From positions 1 through 37,437 of the forward strand of contig CAZKAY010000006.1 of assembly GCA_964550975.1 (NCBI GenBank): a DNA stretch of 37,437 nt. Reading direction: 5' to 3'. The notes beneath the pieces were generated by a model, which saw only the letters and a program-made list of their open reading frames with translations, was not told the origin of the DNA and did no database searches. The position numbers and the translations under genes were made by a program. Source of the DNA: an uncultured Thermoproteales archaeon (GTDB taxonomy: Archaea > Thermoproteota > Thermoprotei > Thermofilales > B9-G17). Below, piece after piece: positions 1-23,946 of this stretch; position 1 is the stretch's first letter, and the number at the start of each line of letters is the position of its first letter.

Positions 1-2
1 TT

Positions 3-1307
3 GTTGACAAAGAGTTCGAGTATAATAGAAATATATTAAATCTAAATATGGGGGATACTATAATTTTATCTGGAGTAAATAGTGATATAATTTTATCTTT
101 AATAGTATCAAACTTAATGGAAATAAACTGTAAATTCATATTAATAGACAGTAGTGGATTATATCAATATTTTTCTTCGGGCCAAATAAAGAAATATATT
201 ATAGGCTGGAACCTGGCTTTACCTTTAGAGATAATTGAGAAACATATTGGAGAGAAAAACATATTATTTGATATTTATACAAATATTTTCTCAATATTAT
301 TAAATATGGACAGCTATGAGAGGGTTATATTACAGAATATATTATTAAAGATACTTACAAAAAGAAGTAACTTAATAGAGGATCTGAGAAGCGAACTAGA
401 GAGTCTATTATATTTATCTACATATAGTATTAGAAAAAATTTTATCGAAAAATTTCTATCCATACTAGATATATTTACTCATAGTTTTATCTCCGTTACC
501 TTCCCATTGCAGGGTCAGATAGGCAGGTTTAATGAAACCTGCATATTTGACTATAGTTTAATTCCATCTTCCTTCAGAAACTTGGCACTACTTTTAAATT
601 TAATATTACTAGAAAAATGCGATTATCCAGTAATCATTATAGATTTAAATGGAATATATGAGAGAAATATTTTGATAAAAAACGAATTGTTTAGAAAAAT
701 TTTAAATGAATTCTGTAAAAGAGAGGACCATATAATTATAGTATCAGATAAAAATTTATCGTTTCTCTTAAAATTATGGTCAACGTCTATTAGAAATCTG
801 ATTTTAACTCAAATACATGATTTAGATGATATAAATATGCTATTTAAGATGGGTTTTTCCAGAGACCTTTTATTAAAATTATTATTGCTTGAAAGCGATA
901 GAGCACTAATTTTAGATACACATAATATTTATGAAACTAGAATAAATATTGAATCCTTTAAATATTTAAAAAATATACCGAAGAAATTTCCAAAGAAAAC
1001 ATTAAAGTATCCAGAATATCTTCCTAAAATATTTCTGTCAAATATCTTCGGTAGAAATGCTGAGATAATATACAGTTTACTAAGTTTTCTACGGGAAGGC
1101 GCAACTAATAGAGATGGAGTATTATCTTATCTTCAATATAAATATGGGTTGAAGACAAGTATTGCGTCTCAACTAATGGTAAAGGCAATGATATATAACC
1201 TTATTGAAGAGGTTGTGGGTAAGGATGGTAGATATTGGATAAGAATTACGTTAAAGGGTATTTCTGTTATGGAAGAATATGAGAAATATATGGGTGGGCT
1301 TAAATGA
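3..1307 (+). CDS. Degenerate HerA/FtsK/VirB4-like P-loop ATPase with C-terminal winged helix (probably 5'-truncated by the window edge)
   Basis: The frame is open from base 3 (VDKEFEYNRNILNLN) into the ATG at 48. HerA-like motif order is recognisable but decayed: ILSGVNSD (Walker A site, no GKS/T), FILIDSSGLY (cf. hhhDxxGEY), VIIIDLN (Walker B site, no DE), IIIVSD (cf. hhhhTQ), LESDRALI (cf. L..GEAhh). The C-terminal ~80 aa is wHTH-like (NLIEEVVGKDGRYWIRITLKG). Confidence 0.6.
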   Translation, partial: VDKEFEYNRNILNLNMGDTIILSGVNSDIILSLIVSNLMEINCKFILIDSSGLYQYFSSGQIKKYIIGWNLALPLEIIEKHIGEKNILFDIYTNIFSILLNMDSYERVILQNILLKILTKRSNLIEDLRSELESLLYLSTYSIRKNFIEKFLSILDIFTHSFISVTFPLQGQIGRFNETCIFDYSLIPSSFRNLALLLNLILLEKCDYPVIIIDLNGIYERNILIKNELFRKILNEFCKREDHIIIVSDKNLSFLLKLWSTSIRNLILTQIHDLDDINMLFKMGFSRDLLLKLLLLESDRALILDTHNIYETRINIESFKYLKNIPKKFPKKTLKYPEYLPKIFLSNIFGRNAEIIYSLLSFLREGATNRDGVLSYLQYKYGLKTSIASQLMVKAMIYNLIEEVVGKDGRYWIRITLKGISVMEEYEKYMGGLK

Positions 1308-1651
1308 TAAAGATTAAACAATATAGCAATGGGTTCTCATGGCCAATAATACTTATTGATAAGGGATGGATCTATGGCGAGATAAAGATGATTTCGATGA
1401 AACGTAGGGTTAGAGTAGTTAGAAAAATATTTTTAGTATCAAAGAGAAATAAGCGAATGGAGGAAATTTTTGTAGAATATTATTCTCCTAGAGACTTTAT
1501 GATAATCCTTGATAATGCGTATAAGATTATATCATACTATCTAGATAAAAAACATCCCATTGATATTGTATATAGAGATATAGAATCCTTAATTTCATCG
1601 TTGAATTTATTTAGAAAATATTTAGAGGAGATAGATTATGATGGAAGATAA
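1304..1651 (+). CDS. Hypothetical protein, 115 aa, basic beta-rich N-half and helical C-half
   Basis: ATGA overlap with the upstream stop, GGTGGG RBS-like sequence upstream, and overlap with the downstream gene. No family recognised. Confidence 0.7.
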   Translation: MIKIKQYSNGFSWPIILIDKGWIYGEIKMISMKRRVRVVRKIFLVSKRNKRMEEIFVEYYSPRDFMIILDNAYKIISYYLDKKHPIDIVYRDIESLISSLNLFRKYLEEIDYDGR

Positions 1652-2591
1652 ACAATTTCTTGAAGACATACCTGGAGTAGGTAGGGTTACGGCAAAAAGA
1701 CTTAGGGATGCTGGAATATTAAGTATAAAGCATTTATCTCTATATACTATTGATGAACTTGTAGATATAACCGGAATGGATCCAATAAGACTTTCGTCAA
1801 TACTTTCCTATGCAAGAAAAATTATCGGATTTAAAGTAAATAACGCGTCATCCTATATGAAATATCGTAGCTCCTTGCCTAGAATAACTACCGGAGTAAA
1901 TGGATTAGATAGAATTCTCCAAGGAGGATTGGAGGCCAGAGCTATATATGAATTTGCTGGGGAATTCGGTACAGGTAAAACTCAGATATGCCACCAATTA
2001 GCTGTAACTGTTCAACTAACTAGGAATAGAGGTGGTATTGGAGGTTCATGCCTATATATAGACACTGAAGGTACATTTAGTCCACCTAGAATTAAAGATA
2101 TTGCAGAAAGATTTGAGATAGAAAATGTACTGGAAAACATATATACTATTGAAGCTATAAACGTTGATCATCTAATAGAATGTATTAGAACTGAAGCTGT
2201 AAATCTAGTTGAGAAGAACAATGTATCATTAATAATCATCGATTCATTGATAAGTCATTTTAGAGCAGAATATACTGGTAGAGAGAAACTAGCATTAAGG
2301 CAGCAGAGATTAAATTACCTAATAGATTGGCTTCTAAGAATAGCCAGAGTATATAACGTATATATCGTTGTTACAAATCAAGTTATGGACGTACCTAATG
2401 CTTGGAGGGCGGGGCAGAAAATTCCAACTGGAGGAAATATTATAGCTCATGGAATGACTCATAGAATATTATTGACGCGTGAAAGAGGCGTAGAAAAAGC
2501 TATGATAATAGATTCTCCATACTTGCCTTATGGGGATTTCATATATTTTGAAATTTATGAGGGAGGTGTAAGAGATGTGGATAAAAAGTGA
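1638..2591 (+). CDS. Second full-length RadA/Rad51-family recombinase (RadA paralog)
   Basis: N-terminal HhH (LEDIPGVGRVTAKRL), Walker A GEFGTGKT, YIDTEGTF, Walker B LIIIDS, L1 FRAEYTGREKLALRQQ, VVTNQV, GGNIIAH, DSP. GAGGAG RBS upstream. Confidence 0.93.
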   Translation: MMEDKQFLEDIPGVGRVTAKRLRDAGILSIKHLSLYTIDELVDITGMDPIRLSSILSYARKIIGFKVNNASSYMKYRSSLPRITTGVNGLDRILQGGLEARAIYEFAGEFGTGKTQICHQLAVTVQLTRNRGGIGGSCLYIDTEGTFSPPRIKDIAERFEIENVLENIYTIEAINVDHLIECIRTEAVNLVEKNNVSLIIIDSLISHFRAEYTGREKLALRQQRLNYLIDWLLRIARVYNVYIVVTNQVMDVPNAWRAGQKIPTGGNIIAHGMTHRILLTRERGVEKAMIIDSPYLPYGDFIYFEIYEGGVRDVDKK

Positions 2592-2901
2592 TGAGAATTA
2601 TCTGAAATTACTTAGAGAAAAATTTCCATATAAAAGTAATTCATGGTTTAATAGATGTTTAAAGAGGATAAATAATGTTCATCGATTAAATAAAAATACA
2701 TGGTTTATTAGAGGTTCGTCGTCTCTCGGAGATAGAAGACAATACTATATTGTAACATATGATATGGCTAAGAACAAATATTATTGTACATGCTATGATA
2801 CTTTTAGTCCGGGAGGAAATAGAAGGAGAAGAGAAGTATGTTCACATGTCGGGGCAGTAATATTATATCAAATAATTCTACAGAAAAGGTTGAATATATG
2901 A
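2575..2901 (+). CDS. SWIM zinc-finger protein (SWS1/Shu2-like architecture)
   Basis: YYCTC-x15-CSHVGAV (CxC...CxH) preceded by beta strands WFIRG...YYIVTY. GGAGGTG RBS upstream; overlaps the end of the radA paralog. Confidence 0.88.
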   Translation: MWIKSDENYLKLLREKFPYKSNSWFNRCLKRINNVHRLNKNTWFIRGSSSLGDRRQYYIVTYDMAKNKYYCTCYDTFSPGGNRRRREVCSHVGAVILYQIILQKRLNI

Positions 2902-3317
2902 TGAAGATATTTATTGGAAGTATTACTGCAATACACCGCCATATTCTTAATATAGGGATTAATAAAAAAGTATATATTATAACTGATAACCCCAGTTATT
3001 TTAAATTAAAAAATAGATCAAACTTTTCAATATTTATCATAAATTCTTTAGATATAGATATTTCTTTAACAGACATTAAAGAAATAAATTTCATAATTAT
3101 TGAAGTAAATCACTTACTACTGTATTTAAAATATCGGTTTGGGGTTTCATTTATGAGAAGAATAGCTCATAGATTTTTTGAAAATTTTAAATCATTTAGT
3201 AAGGCTAATAATATAGAAATTTGGGTTTTTCTATACAAAAGTGATAATGACAAAGTTATATTTATGCCTAACTGGATTTTAGCTGAAAAAATTTATTTAG
3301 ATGAGAATAATGGATGA
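2898..3317 (+). CDS. Minimal, probably inactive RecA/Rad51-fold protein
   Basis: The likely start is the ATG at 2898 (ATGA overlap with the SWIM stop) rather than 2838. The strand/helix pattern tracks the RadA core: KIFIGS / KKVYIITD / FSIFIINS / NFIIIEVNHLL / RRIAHRFFENFKSFSKANNIEIWVF / AEKIYL. No Walker A lysine. Confidence 0.55.
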   Translation: MMKIFIGSITAIHRHILNIGINKKVYIITDNPSYFKLKNRSNFSIFIINSLDIDISLTDIKEINFIIIEVNHLLLYLKYRFGVSFMRRIAHRFFENFKSFSKANNIEIWVFLYKSDNDKVIFMPNWILAEKIYLDENNG

Positions 3318-3678
3318 TGAGAAGATCTTTATATGTCCAATCTGTGGAAAAATATTTTACAATAATATAGGATTAAATAGACATTTGTCTAGAACACATT
3401 CAAACTATTGTTTTATAATTAACTCTCCTTTTCTTATAAAGGTATTAATGAAGATGGAAAAAAATATAGAGGTGCTTAAAAATATAGATAAGATTATCGA
3501 TATATTAGGGTCTATACAGCTGATACTCAGAGATATTAGAGAACAATTATCTATTAATCCTCCAACATACAGTTCCCAAAGTGATGTTAATAGAAAGGAG
3601 GTTAATGAAAATATTCCCTCGTTCTTGGTAGAAAATCCATGGATAAAGGTACTGTCTAGAAAGGGAAGGAAAGTCTAA
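3301..3678 (+). CDS. C2H2 zinc-finger protein with coiled-coil-like helix and C-terminal PSFxxxNPW motif
   Basis: FICPICGKIFYNNIGLNRHLSRTH is a classical C2H2 finger, followed by an amphipathic helix, a polar linker and IPSFLVENPWIKVLSRKG. Overlaps the upstream gene; the start may be 3310. Confidence 0.8.
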   Translation: MRIMDDEKIFICPICGKIFYNNIGLNRHLSRTHSNYCFIINSPFLIKVLMKMEKNIEVLKNIDKIIDILGSIQLILRDIREQLSINPPTYSSQSDVNRKEVNENIPSFLVENPWIKVLSRKGRKV

Positions 3679-3722
3679 CAAAAAATATTACGAAGGAAGA
3701 ATATATATGATTGGTGAATAAA

Positions 3723-4190
3723 GTGGATGAGGAAGAGAAGATAGCTCGCGCCGTTGGAGATAAAACTAGACTAAATATATTGAAGTTATTAAATAAGTTA
3801 GGTCCATTATCTACAAGCGAGCTCACAGAGAAACTTAATAAGCATAGGTCTACGATCATAAGGCATATACTTATTTTACAGGATGCTGGACTAATAACTA
3901 AAAATAGTGAATTATCATATACTTATACTATAACTAGTAGAGGTAAGAAATTTCTGGAACTTGCTTCAACTGAAGGTAGTGTAAAGATAGAAGTACCAGT
4001 GAAAAAACGGAGAGTTTTTTCGTTTAACATATTAAGAAACTTGCTTCATATACCTACTCTAATATTTTTATCATTGGGGTTTATCGGAATGTTTGCTCCA
4101 GTTGAAGTAAGTATTTTATCCAGAATATTATGGTTTATAATATTTACTTTAATATCTTTTCTTTGGGAAATTTTTATCAAGCGATTATAA
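3723..4190 (+). CDS. ArsR-like winged-helix regulator with two C-terminal transmembrane helices
   Basis: DKTRLNILKLL...STSELTEKLNKHRSTIIRHILILQDAGLI...YTITSRG, then two hydrophobic segments. GGTGA at 3713-3717 favours the GTG start at 3723 over 3711. Confidence 0.85.
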   Translation: MDEEEKIARAVGDKTRLNILKLLNKLGPLSTSELTEKLNKHRSTIIRHILILQDAGLITKNSELSYTYTITSRGKKFLELASTEGSVKIEVPVKKRRVFSFNILRNLLHIPTLIFLSLGFIGMFAPVEVSILSRILWFIIFTLISFLWEIFIKRL

Positions 4191-5084
4191 CTGTATATAG
4201 GAGGATAGAGTATAGCTTAGATAAAATATTATAAATGTTACTATAAATGATCTTTCAATGCTTAACCCCCTAAATATGGATATCGATATCGTTAAGAATC
4301 CTATTGTAAAGACCTGTAATATTAATCTATATATTACTGTCAAAACTATATATCCTATAAATGTTTGAGGGAAAATGAGATATAGATAAGGATATAAAAA
4401 TATTGGAAACATTGCTACAAGAATAACTAAGATGAATTCTGGTCGATGAGTTTTTGAACCTAGGAGATACGAAAGAATTTCTGATAAAAGTGTAATGAAT
4501 ATCCAGCTCTTCAATATACTTAAACTAATCCATATTTTTAGTGGAAGAACAATATTATAGGAAAAGAAGCTTAGCGTAACATAATTTTTATGAATTAAAT
4601 CAATTGATATCAACGAATATTCTAGCAGATTTAATTTTAGATATGCAATTACATTCCCTGATACACCTATTGACACAGAAATTAATGCAAGTATGATTGT
4701 ATATAGATAATTATTATACATTTTTGTGAAGAAGCTTTCAGGAAGAAGTATTTTACCGATAGATCTTTCAAATAACTCCAACATTATATGCTTAGGTCTA
4801 ACTATTTCCTCAATTCTACTCGATTCTCTTTTAATTAATTTAAATGTTTTTAATCCCTTAGGTGTAAGGAAATATCTTTTATTTTTATCCTGAGATATAT
4901 ATCCCCTCAATTGATCTAAATTATAGTATAATGTCCCTACGCTAGTCTTTAAATGTCTTTTAAGTTCTGTAAATGTTGTAGGGCCTTTATTGCCCAATAA
5001 TAATATGATTTTGCGTCTGCATGTATTTCCAAGTATACTATATATTTCTGAAATTTCACTTTCTATTTCAGCTTTACCCACCAT
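4185..5084 (-). CDS. Winged-helix regulator fused to a multi-pass (Yip1-like) membrane domain
   Basis: LGNTCRRKIILLLG...TFTELKRHLKTSVGTLYYNLDQL...YFLTPKG, then about 5 hydrophobic segments. GGTGAG RBS. Confidence 0.8.
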   Translation of the reverse strand: MVGKAEIESEISEIYSILGNTCRRKIILLLGNKGPTTFTELKRHLKTSVGTLYYNLDQLRGYISQDKNKRYFLTPKGLKTFKLIKRESSRIEEIVRPKHIMLELFERSIGKILLPESFFTKMYNNYLYTIILALISVSIGVSGNVIAYLKLNLLEYSLISIDLIHKNYVTLSFFSYNIVLPLKIWISLSILKSWIFITLLSEILSYLLGSKTHRPEFILVILVAMFPIFLYPYLYLIFPQTFIGYIVLTVIYRLILQVFTIGFLTISISIFRGLSIERSFIVTFIIFYLSYTLSSYIQL

Positions 5085-5155
5085 CTCACCATTTCATCGA
5101 TTAACTATTTATTTAAGAAAATGATATAAAAATATGACCTTAGGTAGATGGGTTT

Positions 5156-5884
5156 ATGAATATAGGGTTAAGTAGAGATATAAAATTTATACCTGAAATG
5201 GAGGCCATAGAATCTATTCCATTTTTTAGAAACCTATACTTTGAAATAGTAGTTTCTCAAAAATATTTAGAAGATATATCTATATCAGAGATAATAGATC
5301 TATGTGAATTTACTAGCGATGTAAATATAATTGGAATAAGATTATCTTCAAATATTTTATATGATTTAGATTTAGTTGAAAAAAGTCTATATATTTTAGA
5401 CGAGCTTAAAGCAAAATTTCTTGTAGTCCCATTTTTTACGAATTCTAAGTATCAGGTAAAGGATATGGATAAAATATTTGAACTAACAGCTAATTATAAT
5501 AAAACTATCTGTATAGAAACTTTATCTTCCAAATTTTTTTTACCAATAAAGTACATAACAGAAATGATCGATAAATATACTAAATCGGTATTCGGTATAG
5601 CATATAATATGTATTACAATAGAATGAATAAAAACATGTTTAACGAGATAGGTGAAAATATAGAGTATATAAAAATCCTATATTTTATGAATTTTTATAA
5701 AGAGAATAAGCTAAATATATTGGATAACATGGGTGAAATAAATATATTTAGATTAATAAGATATCTTCATAGATATAAATTTAGATACTTTCTCATTCTA
5801 GATTATCCAGATATAACAATATATAACTTGATTAACGATATAGAGAAAATAATGGAATTTCTTTTTTCTATAAAAGAGAAATAA
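5156..5884 (+). CDS. Divergent xylose-isomerase/AP-endonuclease-2-like TIM-barrel protein
   Basis: Pattern LKAKFLVV...ANYNKTICIET...FGIAYN...YIKILYF...GEINIFRLIRYL...YFLILDY matches the family scaffold, but the metal ligands are largely substituted. Confidence 0.55.
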   Translation: MNIGLSRDIKFIPEMEAIESIPFFRNLYFEIVVSQKYLEDISISEIIDLCEFTSDVNIIGIRLSSNILYDLDLVEKSLYILDELKAKFLVVPFFTNSKYQVKDMDKIFELTANYNKTICIETLSSKFFLPIKYITEMIDKYTKSVFGIAYNMYYNRMNKNMFNEIGENIEYIKILYFMNFYKENKLNILDNMGEINIFRLIRYLHRYKFRYFLILDYPDITIYNLINDIEKIMEFLFSIKEK

Positions 5885-5888
5885 ATAC

Positions 5889-6137
5889 TTACTTCGTCTT
5901 TAAAAGTTCCTTTTTCTTCTCCCCAGTTGATTTCGATATAACCCATCCTATCCAAGCTGTAAAGAAGACTAGGAAGAAAACTATTGACGAAACCGGTATA
6001 ATTATTATCCACCATGTCCACCAGAAAGTGCTAGTCATAATTTCATATTTCAGCCATAGAATGAGGGAAAAAATATAGAAGAAACCTATGGAAAAAGAGA
6101 TAAACATAATTAGGTATCCCCATCTATGGCTTCTCAC
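5889..6137 (-). CDS. Small two-TM membrane protein
   Basis: Two hydrophobic helices and a basic tail. AGGTG RBS before the GTG start; last gene of the SPFH operon. Confidence 0.7.
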   Translation of the reverse strand: MRSHRWGYLIMFISFSIGFFYIFSLILWLKYEIMTSTFWWTWWIIIIPVSSIVFFLVFFTAWIGWVISKSTGEKKKELLKTK

Positions 6138-23706: not shown

Positions 23707-23853
23707 TCAATAAGACTTACCATACATAATTATTTTCTTTCTATATGAGATTAAAGCTATGCTATTCAAATTTAATAAAAAGACAAGCATTGGTTAAAAT
23801 AGTTTTCACAATTGACATAAAATTCATATATTACAAAGAATATATATCATTTA

Positions 23854-23936
23854 GCCCCGGTAGCTTAGTGGTAGAGCGGCGGCCTCGTATGCTTCGGGAA
23901 AGCCGTTGATCGCGGGTTCAAATCCCGCCCGGGGCT
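23854..23936 (+). tRNA. tRNA-Thr(CGU) with 11-nt intron at position 37/38 (23890-23900)
   Basis: Acceptor GCCCCGG/CCGGGGC, D-arm GCTT/GAGC, anticodon stem GCGGC/GCCGT with loop CT-CGT-A^A, T-arm GCGGG-TTCAAAT-CCCGC, discriminator U; CCA not encoded. Confidence 0.95.
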
Positions 23937-23946
23937 TGGTGATATC

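Follow-up and report, generated by a model that had tools for sequence, protein, structure and literature searches.

In this work, a RadA paralogue (P0001) was analyzed in a window of 37,437 nucleotides (nt), that is, the whole stretch of contig DNA taken from an uncultured Thermoproteales archaeon (assembly of 2.0 Mb in 157 contigs, completeness 93.7%, contamination 1.85%). P0001 retains the complete domain architecture and ATPase motifs of a recombinase, has lost the Phe of the FxxA polymerization motif together with its whole clade, and is encoded in a conserved operon next to a small protein, P0273, with a putative SWIM-type zinc finger. We hypothesize, giving the idea about an even chance, that P0001 is an accessory mediator subunit similar to the Shu and Rad51-paralogue proteins rather than a Dmc1-like second recombinase. 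The observations on which this is built are the retention and loss of motifs, the clade membership, the conservation of the operon, the purifying selection on the gene, and the co-occurrence with RadA of the FxxA type.

The RadA paralogue P0001 and its clade

The features of P0001 and the canonical RadA of the window (P0002), with which it was compared, are as follows.
1638..2591, forward strand: P0001, full-length RadA paralogue of the Phe-less clade, 317 residues, open reading frame translated without stops
1836..1847, forward strand: VNNA (residues 67-70) at the site of the FxxA polymerization motif, aligned to FITA of P0002
1959..1985, forward strand: Walker A GEFGTGKTQ, identified by its motif
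2136..2174, forward strand: NIYTIEAINVDHL, aligned in place of the canonical 13-residue strand and loop lining the FxxA acceptor site
2394..2417, forward strand: L2 region PNAWRAGQ (canonical PDVFFGNP), from the alignment to P0002
10684..11655, forward strand: P0002, canonical RadA with FITA (Pfam, NCBIfam), comparator and presumed client

P0001 matched Pfam Rad51 with 233 bits (cut-off 22) and, in residues 7-61, HHH_5 with 35.4 bits (cut-off 27), and its identity to P0002 was 46% across 314 residues. The NCBIfam RadA model NF003301 was passed by both proteins (327 for P0001 and 463 for P0002, cut-off 259), whereas TIGR02236 (cut-off 361) was passed by P0002 with 437 and missed by P0001 with 296. 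The RadB models (TIGR02237, 122 against a cut-off of 172; NF006861, 78 against 278) and the eukaryotic Dmc1/Rad51 models (TIGR02238, 249 against 448; TIGR02239, 254 against 478) all scored P0001 below their cut-offs. Besides the Walker A motif, P0001 contains DTEG, Walker B (IIIDS), L1 (HFRAEYTGRE), RQQ, TNQV, GGN..AH, and DSP. In the alignment of 50 relatives, the ATPase and L1 motifs were invariant or nearly so, 53 positions were invariant, and of the L1 arginines R209 was invariant and R215 nearly invariant. An earlier note on this DNA, made from the sequence, had described the N-terminal helix-hairpin-helix (HhH) domain, Walker A and B, DTEG, the L1 arginines, and DSP as retained, and all of these were recovered by Pfam or alignment. 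Its reading of FITA as changed to VNNA at 1836-1847 agrees in coordinates and alignment, and the two further changes it had listed, of the canonical 12-residue acceptor block to IYTIEAINVDHL and of L2 from PDVFFGNP to PNAWRAGQ, are both seen in the alignment with P0002.

Two details of the altered interface deserve care. Two residues before VNNA lies F65, within GFKV; this Phe is kept in nine of the ten closest relatives (P0011 has Leu) and not elsewhere in the clade. The residue that follows it, encoded by codon 66 (window position 1833), is Lys here and Gln in all four other populations for which contigs were available, so the position between the upstream Phe and the Val of GFKVNNA appears free to vary. 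Moreover, P0001 has a Tyr at the position of the Phe pocket which we take to be equal to human A190, a tentative mapping based on conserved flanks and the RAD51 sequence. The pocket residues were assigned from the accessible parts of the P. furiosus RadA study, where Y201 corresponds to human A190 (PMC5117717). Because this Tyr also occurs in a bona fide RadA, the acceptor site of P0001 can be called altered, which the alignment shows, and at most putatively occluded.

Contigs of four other metagenomes (hydrothermal-vent, marine, or sediment) cover it at 95-99% identity or better, and among the differences listed there were 14 synonymous and 7 non-synonymous changes and no insertion or deletion, giving a rough ratio of non-synonymous to synonymous polymorphism (pN/pS) of 0.14. 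The P0001 gene is thus under purifying selection. Together with the invariance of the catalytic and L1 motifs in 50 relatives, this argues that P0001 is functional.

The phylogenetic position was determined with IQ-TREE (LG+C20+F+G4) on 53 rows, chosen by leaving aside overlong or degenerate rows and near relatives that were redundant, and the tree was rooted on two Rad51-type sequences, P0220 and P0204. P0001 fell in a clade of 27 rows with an ultrafast bootstrap of 100 and a Shimodaira-Hasegawa-like approximate likelihood ratio test (SH-aLRT) value of 99, on a stem of 0.96 changes per column; a quick tree of 90 rows also placed it in a clade of divergent full-length paralogues. Members of the clade are the query subclade (P0003-P0011, with 60-84% identity to P0001), Thermofilaceae paralogues encoded 3-7 kb from the canonical radA, a Vulcanisaeta distributa protein named RadA by NCBI (P0039), and operon-linked paralogues of a Methanomethylicia and a Culexmicrobium metagenome-assembled genome (MAG). 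A group of FxxA-bearing RadAs of TACK archaea (Thaumarchaeota, Aigarchaeota, Crenarchaeota, and Korarchaeota) is sister to it at weak support (80/82), and the clade stands beside these TACK RadAs and apart from P0220 and P0204, the only eukaryotic rows in the tree. Judging from these sequences, the clade goes back to an old duplication, probably one within TACK. The earlier note had named a recent duplicate or an acquired ordinary RadA as an origin that would speak against its view; the separate, well-supported clade, its long stem, and its TACK RadA sister argue that P0001 is neither.

The loss of the Phe was followed in a full-length alignment of 270 rows, which comprised the tree rows and all matches among P0003-P0270 of 285-420 residues, intein-containing and fragmentary matches being excluded. 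Clade membership was set by the signature N[YF]xx[DN]W, located in the helix that follows RQQ, which placed 116 rows inside and 154 outside. None of the 116 clade rows has Phe at the FxxA column, compared with 116 of the 154 other rows. The clade rows carry instead V (43), A (33), P (12), I (11), a gap (6), T (5), E (3), C (2), or S (1). The canonical 14-residue acceptor block is likewise kept in none of the 116, TFRPER has become TFSPxR in most members, and L2 is one to two residues shorter in many; in P0001, the helix after RQQ is also rewritten (LNYxxDWL). Hence the proposal of the earlier note that both halves of the FxxA interface had changed holds at the level of sequence, and the change is fixed across the whole old clade. 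A second concern raised there, that VxxA might be common in bona fide RadAs, does not agree with these counts, in which the loss of Phe is a character of the clade.

The paralogue does not replace the polymerizing recombinase. In a survey of 74 genomes of the class with completeness of at least 90%, in which a match of at least 58% identity to P0002, whether complete or interrupted by the end of a contig, was counted as FxxA-type RadA, such a RadA was found in 72, including every single-contig genome; the other two are MAGs of 200 and 150 contigs. Four g33 genomes of 2.0-2.4 Mb, three of them single contigs, each hold a match of 65-66% to P0002 plus a paralogue of 37-40%. On the other side, family f15 shows just one RadA match in 23 of its 24 genomes, so the paralogue is restricted to certain lineages and cannot be a universal requirement.

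The putative SWIM protein and the other operon products

Two genes precede P0001 in a same-strand cluster whose stops and starts overlap. The other genes of the cluster and its conserved neighbour are the following.
48..1307, forward strand: P0271, 419 residues, with a predicted degenerate HerA/FtsK-type fold without Walker A and a conserved C-terminal winged-helix domain (structure model)
1304..1651, forward strand: P0272, 115 residues, open reading frame of conserved position overlapping both neighbours
2575..2901, forward strand: P0273, 108 residues, putative SWIM-type zinc finger C71-x-C73-x15-C89-x-H91-x-x-A94, overlapping the end of P0001 by 17 nt
2898..3317 (about), forward strand: P0274, 139-159 residues, open reading frame of a small α/β-looking protein
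3301..3678, forward strand: P0275, 125 residues, C2H2 zinc-finger protein (Pfam zf-C2H2, 25.9 bits)
3711..4190, forward strand: ArsR-type winged helix-turn-helix (wHTH) protein (Pfam HTH_5, 1.9e-12), last gene of the same-strand cluster
4185..5084, reverse strand: helix-turn-helix protein of 299 residues, conserved neighbour (Pfam, synteny)

No change at the five motif residues of P0273 (C71, C73, C89, H91, and A94) was seen among 11 sequences, and in a set of 53 they were conserved to at least 90%. Pfam SWIM was matched at E<=1 by 34 of these 53 family members, the best at 9.4e-5, and other families by at most four members; all 53 are unnamed or called 'hypothetical protein' and have no precomputed Pfam domain. 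The AlphaFold2 (AF2) model of P0273 reached a predicted local distance difference test score (pLDDT) of 86.5. By aligning it with VIA-align to 48,161 chains, a single chain with Z of at least 5 was obtained, ZSWIM8 (9rwz_M; Z 6.2, root-mean-square deviation 3.8, 85 aligned residues, 19% identity), and Shu2 of E. gossypii (6dex_B) took rank 5 with Z 3.6. A Foldseek search with the model gave nothing at E<=0.001, and the SWIM profile, searched against PDB sequences, retrieved a chance row only (E 0.16). P0273 is therefore best described as a candidate SWIM-type protein, from its motif, the family-wide sub-threshold Pfam matches, and one middling fold match. According to the accessible parts of two reports, the motif CXC...Xn...CXHXXA defines Shu2/SWS1, the partner of Rad51 paralogues (PMC6316741, PMC5727457).

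The coupling of the two genes was examined at 11 named SWIM loci from a scan of GTDB genomes, four of which lie on the same contigs as loci of genomes G013, G001, G005, and G012, and two of which are near-identical to each other. At nine of the 11, a RadA-like gene lies directly 5' of the SWIM gene (eight full-length and one relative of 265 residues); the remaining two have none. Stop and start of the two genes overlap at seven of the eight loci with a full-length gene. Families f2 and f3 show the inverse order, the SWIM gene being directly 5' of a paralogue from another subclade, so the linkage appears to have outlived a rearrangement. The searches for RadA-family and SWIM-family proteins covered 41 genomes, and statements on RadA in this set hold among the matches listed. 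A SWIM-family match was found in 34 of the 41, and it lies at most 4 kb from a RadA-family match in 13 of these 34, including all 12 genomes of families f1, f2, f3, f5, and f6. Seven genomes have no SWIM match, and three of them (G006, G008, and G034) also have no member of the paralogue clade. A prediction of the complex of P0001 and P0273 returned no model (score 0.00, with the mark set at 0.32) and counts neither for nor against it.

The complete 1.8 Mb genome G020 has eleven SWIM-profile matches scattered over the chromosome, several of them with internal stops, and they may represent an expansion carried by a repeated or mobile element.

The first gene product, P0271, had no Pfam, PHROG, or NCBIfam match. 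Its AF2 model has a mean pLDDT of 65.9, with about 90 in the C-terminal domain. Foldseek against the PDB returned 33 matches at E<=0.001, the best to S. solfataricus HerA (4d2i, E 1.1e-5), at a TM score of only about 0.3; the matches listed were HerA, VirB4, TrwB, DndH, or unnamed proteins, and the ESM Atlas gave a lead to DUF87/HerA clusters (0.90-0.91). The Walker A pattern GxxxxGK[ST] is present in none of six P0271 orthologues. From the models, P0271 would be a HerA-like protein with an α/β body of lower confidence and a confident C-terminal wHTH domain. Its orthologues stand 5' of the RadA paralogue in six of the 11 named loci. P0272 likewise had no family match in Pfam, PHROG, or NCBIfam, and its orthologues occupy the matching position at L054, L055, L060, L061, and L062.

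Positional counterparts of P0274 in other loci are only 12-19% identical. Its possible identity as a RecA-like subunit without a P-loop is no more than a guess from the β-α pattern: hhalign against the RadA alignment gave a probability of 0.4%, and the best ESM Atlas value was 0.78. In one of the other populations (X8), P0274 carries a 1-nt deletion at 3071 and a 1-nt insertion behind 3075, by which the frame is regained within two codons; this is a hint that the frame is coding despite its poor conservation. Parts of 2936-3139 had no contig cover in two metagenome runs, and no conclusion was drawn from this. The tail of P0275 is conserved as [DN]NPW[IL]xVL followed by basic residues, and orthologues are found at L055 and L060-L063. 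The ArsR-type gene is conserved at L054, L055, and L062.

Around the G013 and G001 orthologues the whole cluster is syntenic, in G005 and G012 the part beginning with the RadA paralogue is, and the synteny of the operon spans Thermoprotei, Methanomethylicia, and Culexarchaeia MAGs. An origin of the operon from an integrated virus or plasmid was considered and set aside: the PHROG matches of the neighbours were only weak regulators, the GC content is ordinary, and the synteny extends across classes.

A possible mediator module and its rivals

The mediator hypothesis follows from four lines taken together, namely an intact and constrained RadA-type ATPase without the donor Phe, its coupling to a SWIM protein, degenerate ATPase-like and DNA-binding neighbours, and the co-occurrence with FxxA-type RadA. 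Such a combination of traits is typical of Rad51-paralogue mediator complexes. In the proposed mechanism, P0001 would be the ATP-binding subunit of a recombination-mediator module and would not form a strand-exchange filament by itself. Along with it, the module would contain the SWIM protein P0273, and the HerA-like/wHTH protein P0271 without Walker A, P0272, P0274, and the C2H2 protein P0275 would probably be added to it. It would bind single-stranded or branched DNA and would help to load, stabilize, cap, or remodel filaments of FxxA-type RadA, by analogy with Shu, SWS1-SWSAP1, and Rad55-Rad57. We infer the physical complex, the DNA binding, the ATPase activity, and the action on RadA filaments.

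By comparing P0001 with known systems, both likeness and difference become clear. Rad55-Rad57 and RAD51B/C/D-XRCC2/3 are ATP-binding RecA-fold proteins that assist Rad51 and are not known to form filaments of their own, and several of them keep the N-terminal domain; unlike the P0001 system, they are not known to have a SWIM partner. RadB and aRadC, the archaeal accessory proteins of the RecA family, typically lack the N-terminal HhH domain, which P0001 possesses. With the Shu complexes (yeast Shu2-Shu1-Psy3-Csm2, human SWS1-SWSAP1, and C. elegans SWS-1/RIP-1/RFS-1), the system shares a Rad51-family paralogue and a protein with the CxC..Xn..CxHxxA motif, which are linked here through gene coupling, and the presence of P0271, predicted to be ATPase-like and without the P-loop, would be a further trait of the Shu kind. 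The archaeal SWIM protein is minimal in comparison with Shu2 (108 residues and n=15, against n=59), and its fold match to Shu2 is weak. Canonical archaeal RadA, that is, P0002 and P. furiosus RadA (PDB 1PZN; accessible parts of PMC5117717), shares with P0001 the HhH domain and RecA-type core, the length of about 320 residues, Walker A and B, the catalytic Glu, L1, RQQ, TNQV, and DSP; P0001 differs from it in sequence at more than half of the positions, as given above, in the missing Phe, in the rewritten acceptor block, L2, and post-RQQ helix, in its separate clade, and in its other operon. Two RadA clades were reported in some Asgard archaea, and their second RadAs are likewise additional full-length proteins beside the canonical one; the loss of FxxA and partner proteins are not discussed in the accessible parts of that report (PMC12722695).

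Several observations weigh against a mediator function of P0001. Every recombinase element except the Phe is retained, and the last position of FxxA is still Ala or Gly in 103 of the 116 clade members. The conserved Phe of GF[KR]V in the query subclade could be a register-shifted docking residue. The yeast Shu paralogues are small and without ATPase motifs, unlike P0001, which keeps the complete ATPase and the HhH domain. As for the SWIM partner, Pfam SWIM (PF04434) was the top family for P0273 at a score below the threshold (12.4 against 19.6 bits), and the ZSWIM8 match of its model is middling. Among the matches listed, the linkage itself is found in one of 20 Thermofilaceae genomes with a SWIM match, and two genomes (G030 and G035, 92% and 81% complete) have a paralogue of the clade and no SWIM match.

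The same retained elements can be read as an autonomous second recombinase, whose remodelled interface, through the shifted Phe of GFKV or through Val or Ala in a reshaped pocket, would give filaments that do not mix with RadA and that act on separate substrates. The complete domain architecture with intact Walker A and B, catalytic Glu, L1 arginines, RQQ, TNQV, and ATP cap would fit such a protein, as would the purifying selection and the conservation of F65 in the query subclade, and donor and acceptor regions altered together across the clade would be expected of a co-evolving private interface. We nevertheless consider it unlikely. No clade-wide hydrophobic anchor is present at or near the motif, where V, A, P, I, T, E, and gaps alternate, L2 is rewritten and often shortened, and the score with the Dmc1 model is far below its cut-off; Dmc1 and Rad51 both retain FxxA, which also counts against it. 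Such close coupling to a SWIM protein and to ATPase-like proteins lacking Walker A is rather typical of mediators. The two functions suggested in the earlier note can be ranked on this basis: its capping or nucleating subunit comes closer to the mediator that we favour, by inference, while its orthogonal Rad51/Dmc1-like filament is less favoured because no conserved replacement of the Phe is seen, FxxA-type RadA co-occurs, and the gene is coupled to SWIM and degenerate ATPase-like partners. A form of the former in which P0001 joins one end of a RadA filament directly via its ATP-cap face, without the operon partners, and then terminates or nucleates growth as a cap or seed, seems distinctly improbable. 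The DSP ATP cap and the ATPase face are conserved as it demands, one or both FxxA half-sites are altered, and the distance to the canonical radA is 9 kb in this genome and 3-7 kb in those of Thermofilaceae, but this proximity is lost in G001 (25 kb) and G013 (different contigs), the conserved overlapping operon with SWIM and other genes is left unexplained, and canonical docking would fail both ways were the acceptor site closed too.

In another reading, P0001 would act outside recombination, as a RadA-derived ATPase recruited by a DNA-associated ATPase system of a different kind, be it for defence, for the maintenance of mobile elements, or as a KaiC-like regulatory switch. Dead HerA-like proteins, wHTH, C2H2, and ArsR regulators are also found in defence and mobile modules, the fold matches of P0271 include the HerA-Sir2 and HerA-DUF4297 defence complexes, most operon partners have no family, and the 11 SWIM-family matches of G020, several with stops, would suit a mobile system. 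We regard this as quite improbable in view of the synteny across Thermoprotei, Methanomethylicia, and Culexarchaeia MAGs, the ordinary GC content without integrase, tRNA, or repeat borders noticed within 1-6000, and the retained L1 and HhH DNA-binding elements typical of recombinases. The idea of a decaying or redundant copy that lacks its own function is hardly credible. P0001 does evolve more rapidly than canonical RadA and misses the TIGR02236 cut-off, but its reading frame is intact both in this genome and in the four other populations, the low pN/pS and the 53 positions invariant in 50 relatives speak of constraint, and the clade is old and widespread.

If P0001 is a mediator subunit, it would bear on a question that is still unclear in eukaryotes, that is, how Rad51 paralogues and SWS1/Shu2 control recombinase filaments; the archaeal helpers RadB and aRadC look different. 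The pair of a P0001-clade paralogue and a SWIM protein would be the first prokaryotic system with both defining components of the Shu type. It would provide a small thermostable model for structural and biochemical study of mediator action, and evidence on whether mediators of Rad51 paralogue and SWIM protein predate eukaryotes. The stronger claim is that TACK archaea hold a true counterpart of the Shu/SWS1-Rad51-paralogue mediators, made of an ATPase-active, non-polymerizing RadA paralogue, a minimal SWIM protein, P-loop-less ATPase-like subunits, and DNA-binding adaptors, and related to SWS1-SWSAP1 or Shu2-Shu1-Psy3-Csm2 by shared ancestry or mechanistic equivalence, which would date such mediators to before eukaryogenesis; we consider this doubtful. 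Our literature search found no report of full-length Thermoproteota RadA paralogues without FxxA or of a SWIM-RadA operon, and Godin et al. (2015; Genetics 199:1023), which was outside the search, may list archaeal relatives of SWS1. This paper is cited for the range 'archaea to humans' in the accessible parts of PMC5727457. What is added here is the coupling to SWIM, the clade-wide loss of Phe, and the wider taxonomic range. There is also a practical side. Annotation pipelines label proteins of the clade 'RadA', as NF003301 is passed, so copy counts and radA phylogenies of Thermoproteota would mix two functionally different genes.

Other RadA genes and minor observations

A single orthologue of P0002, with 69-74% identity, was found in every one of 20 further genomes of the order, compared with 46.5% identity between P0001 and P0002. 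Apart from these two, the source genome contains the following RadA genes.
Contig C4, 37963-38904 (L001 1495-2436), reverse strand: full-length RadA of 313 residues with FMNA, 59% identical to P0002, grouping only with one gene of G001
Contig C12 (L003 1267-2220): RadA of 317 residues with FMSA, thus FxxA-bearing
Contig C12 (L003 2213-3070): truncated RadA paralogue of 285 residues, directly behind the C12 RadA

The RadA family of this genome therefore consists of four full-length genes (P0002, the C4 gene, the C12 gene, and P0001) and one truncated gene, and P0001 is the only full-length member without the Phe, the other three being of the FxxA type. The earlier note had called P0001 a second full-length RadA. 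The full length stands and the count does not, since there are four such genes and the truncated one; the operon and the two further FxxA-bearing RadAs had been omitted from it.

Multiple RadA genes are the rule in the order. RadA-family matches were found in all 41 genomes searched, commonly two to four of them full-length. Chimerism of the MAG was considered as a cause of the many RadAs and judged unlikely: the GC content of the contigs is homogeneous (0.32 on average; the five outliers, at 0.36-0.45, are small contigs of 2-8 kb), and two to four copies are likewise present in related complete genomes. Many of the top RadA matches (P0127-P0267) are 500-1200 residues long with two or three matched stretches, which is consistent with intein-containing RadAs, and in G051 a RadA match lies within a frame of 801 residues.

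The tandem pair on C12 is identical in its central part. A direct repeat of 270 nt with 100% identity was found at L003 1519-1788 and 2399-2668, at a spacing of 880 nt, and it reflects either ongoing gene conversion between the tandem paralogues or an artefact of assembly. Similar tandem RadA pairs were seen in G001, G006, G008, and G034; there, the C-terminal half of the second copy is degenerate. Elsewhere in the window, a tRNA-Thr(CGU) lies at 23853-23937; with 85 nt it is longer than the standard, which an intron or an extended variable region may explain.

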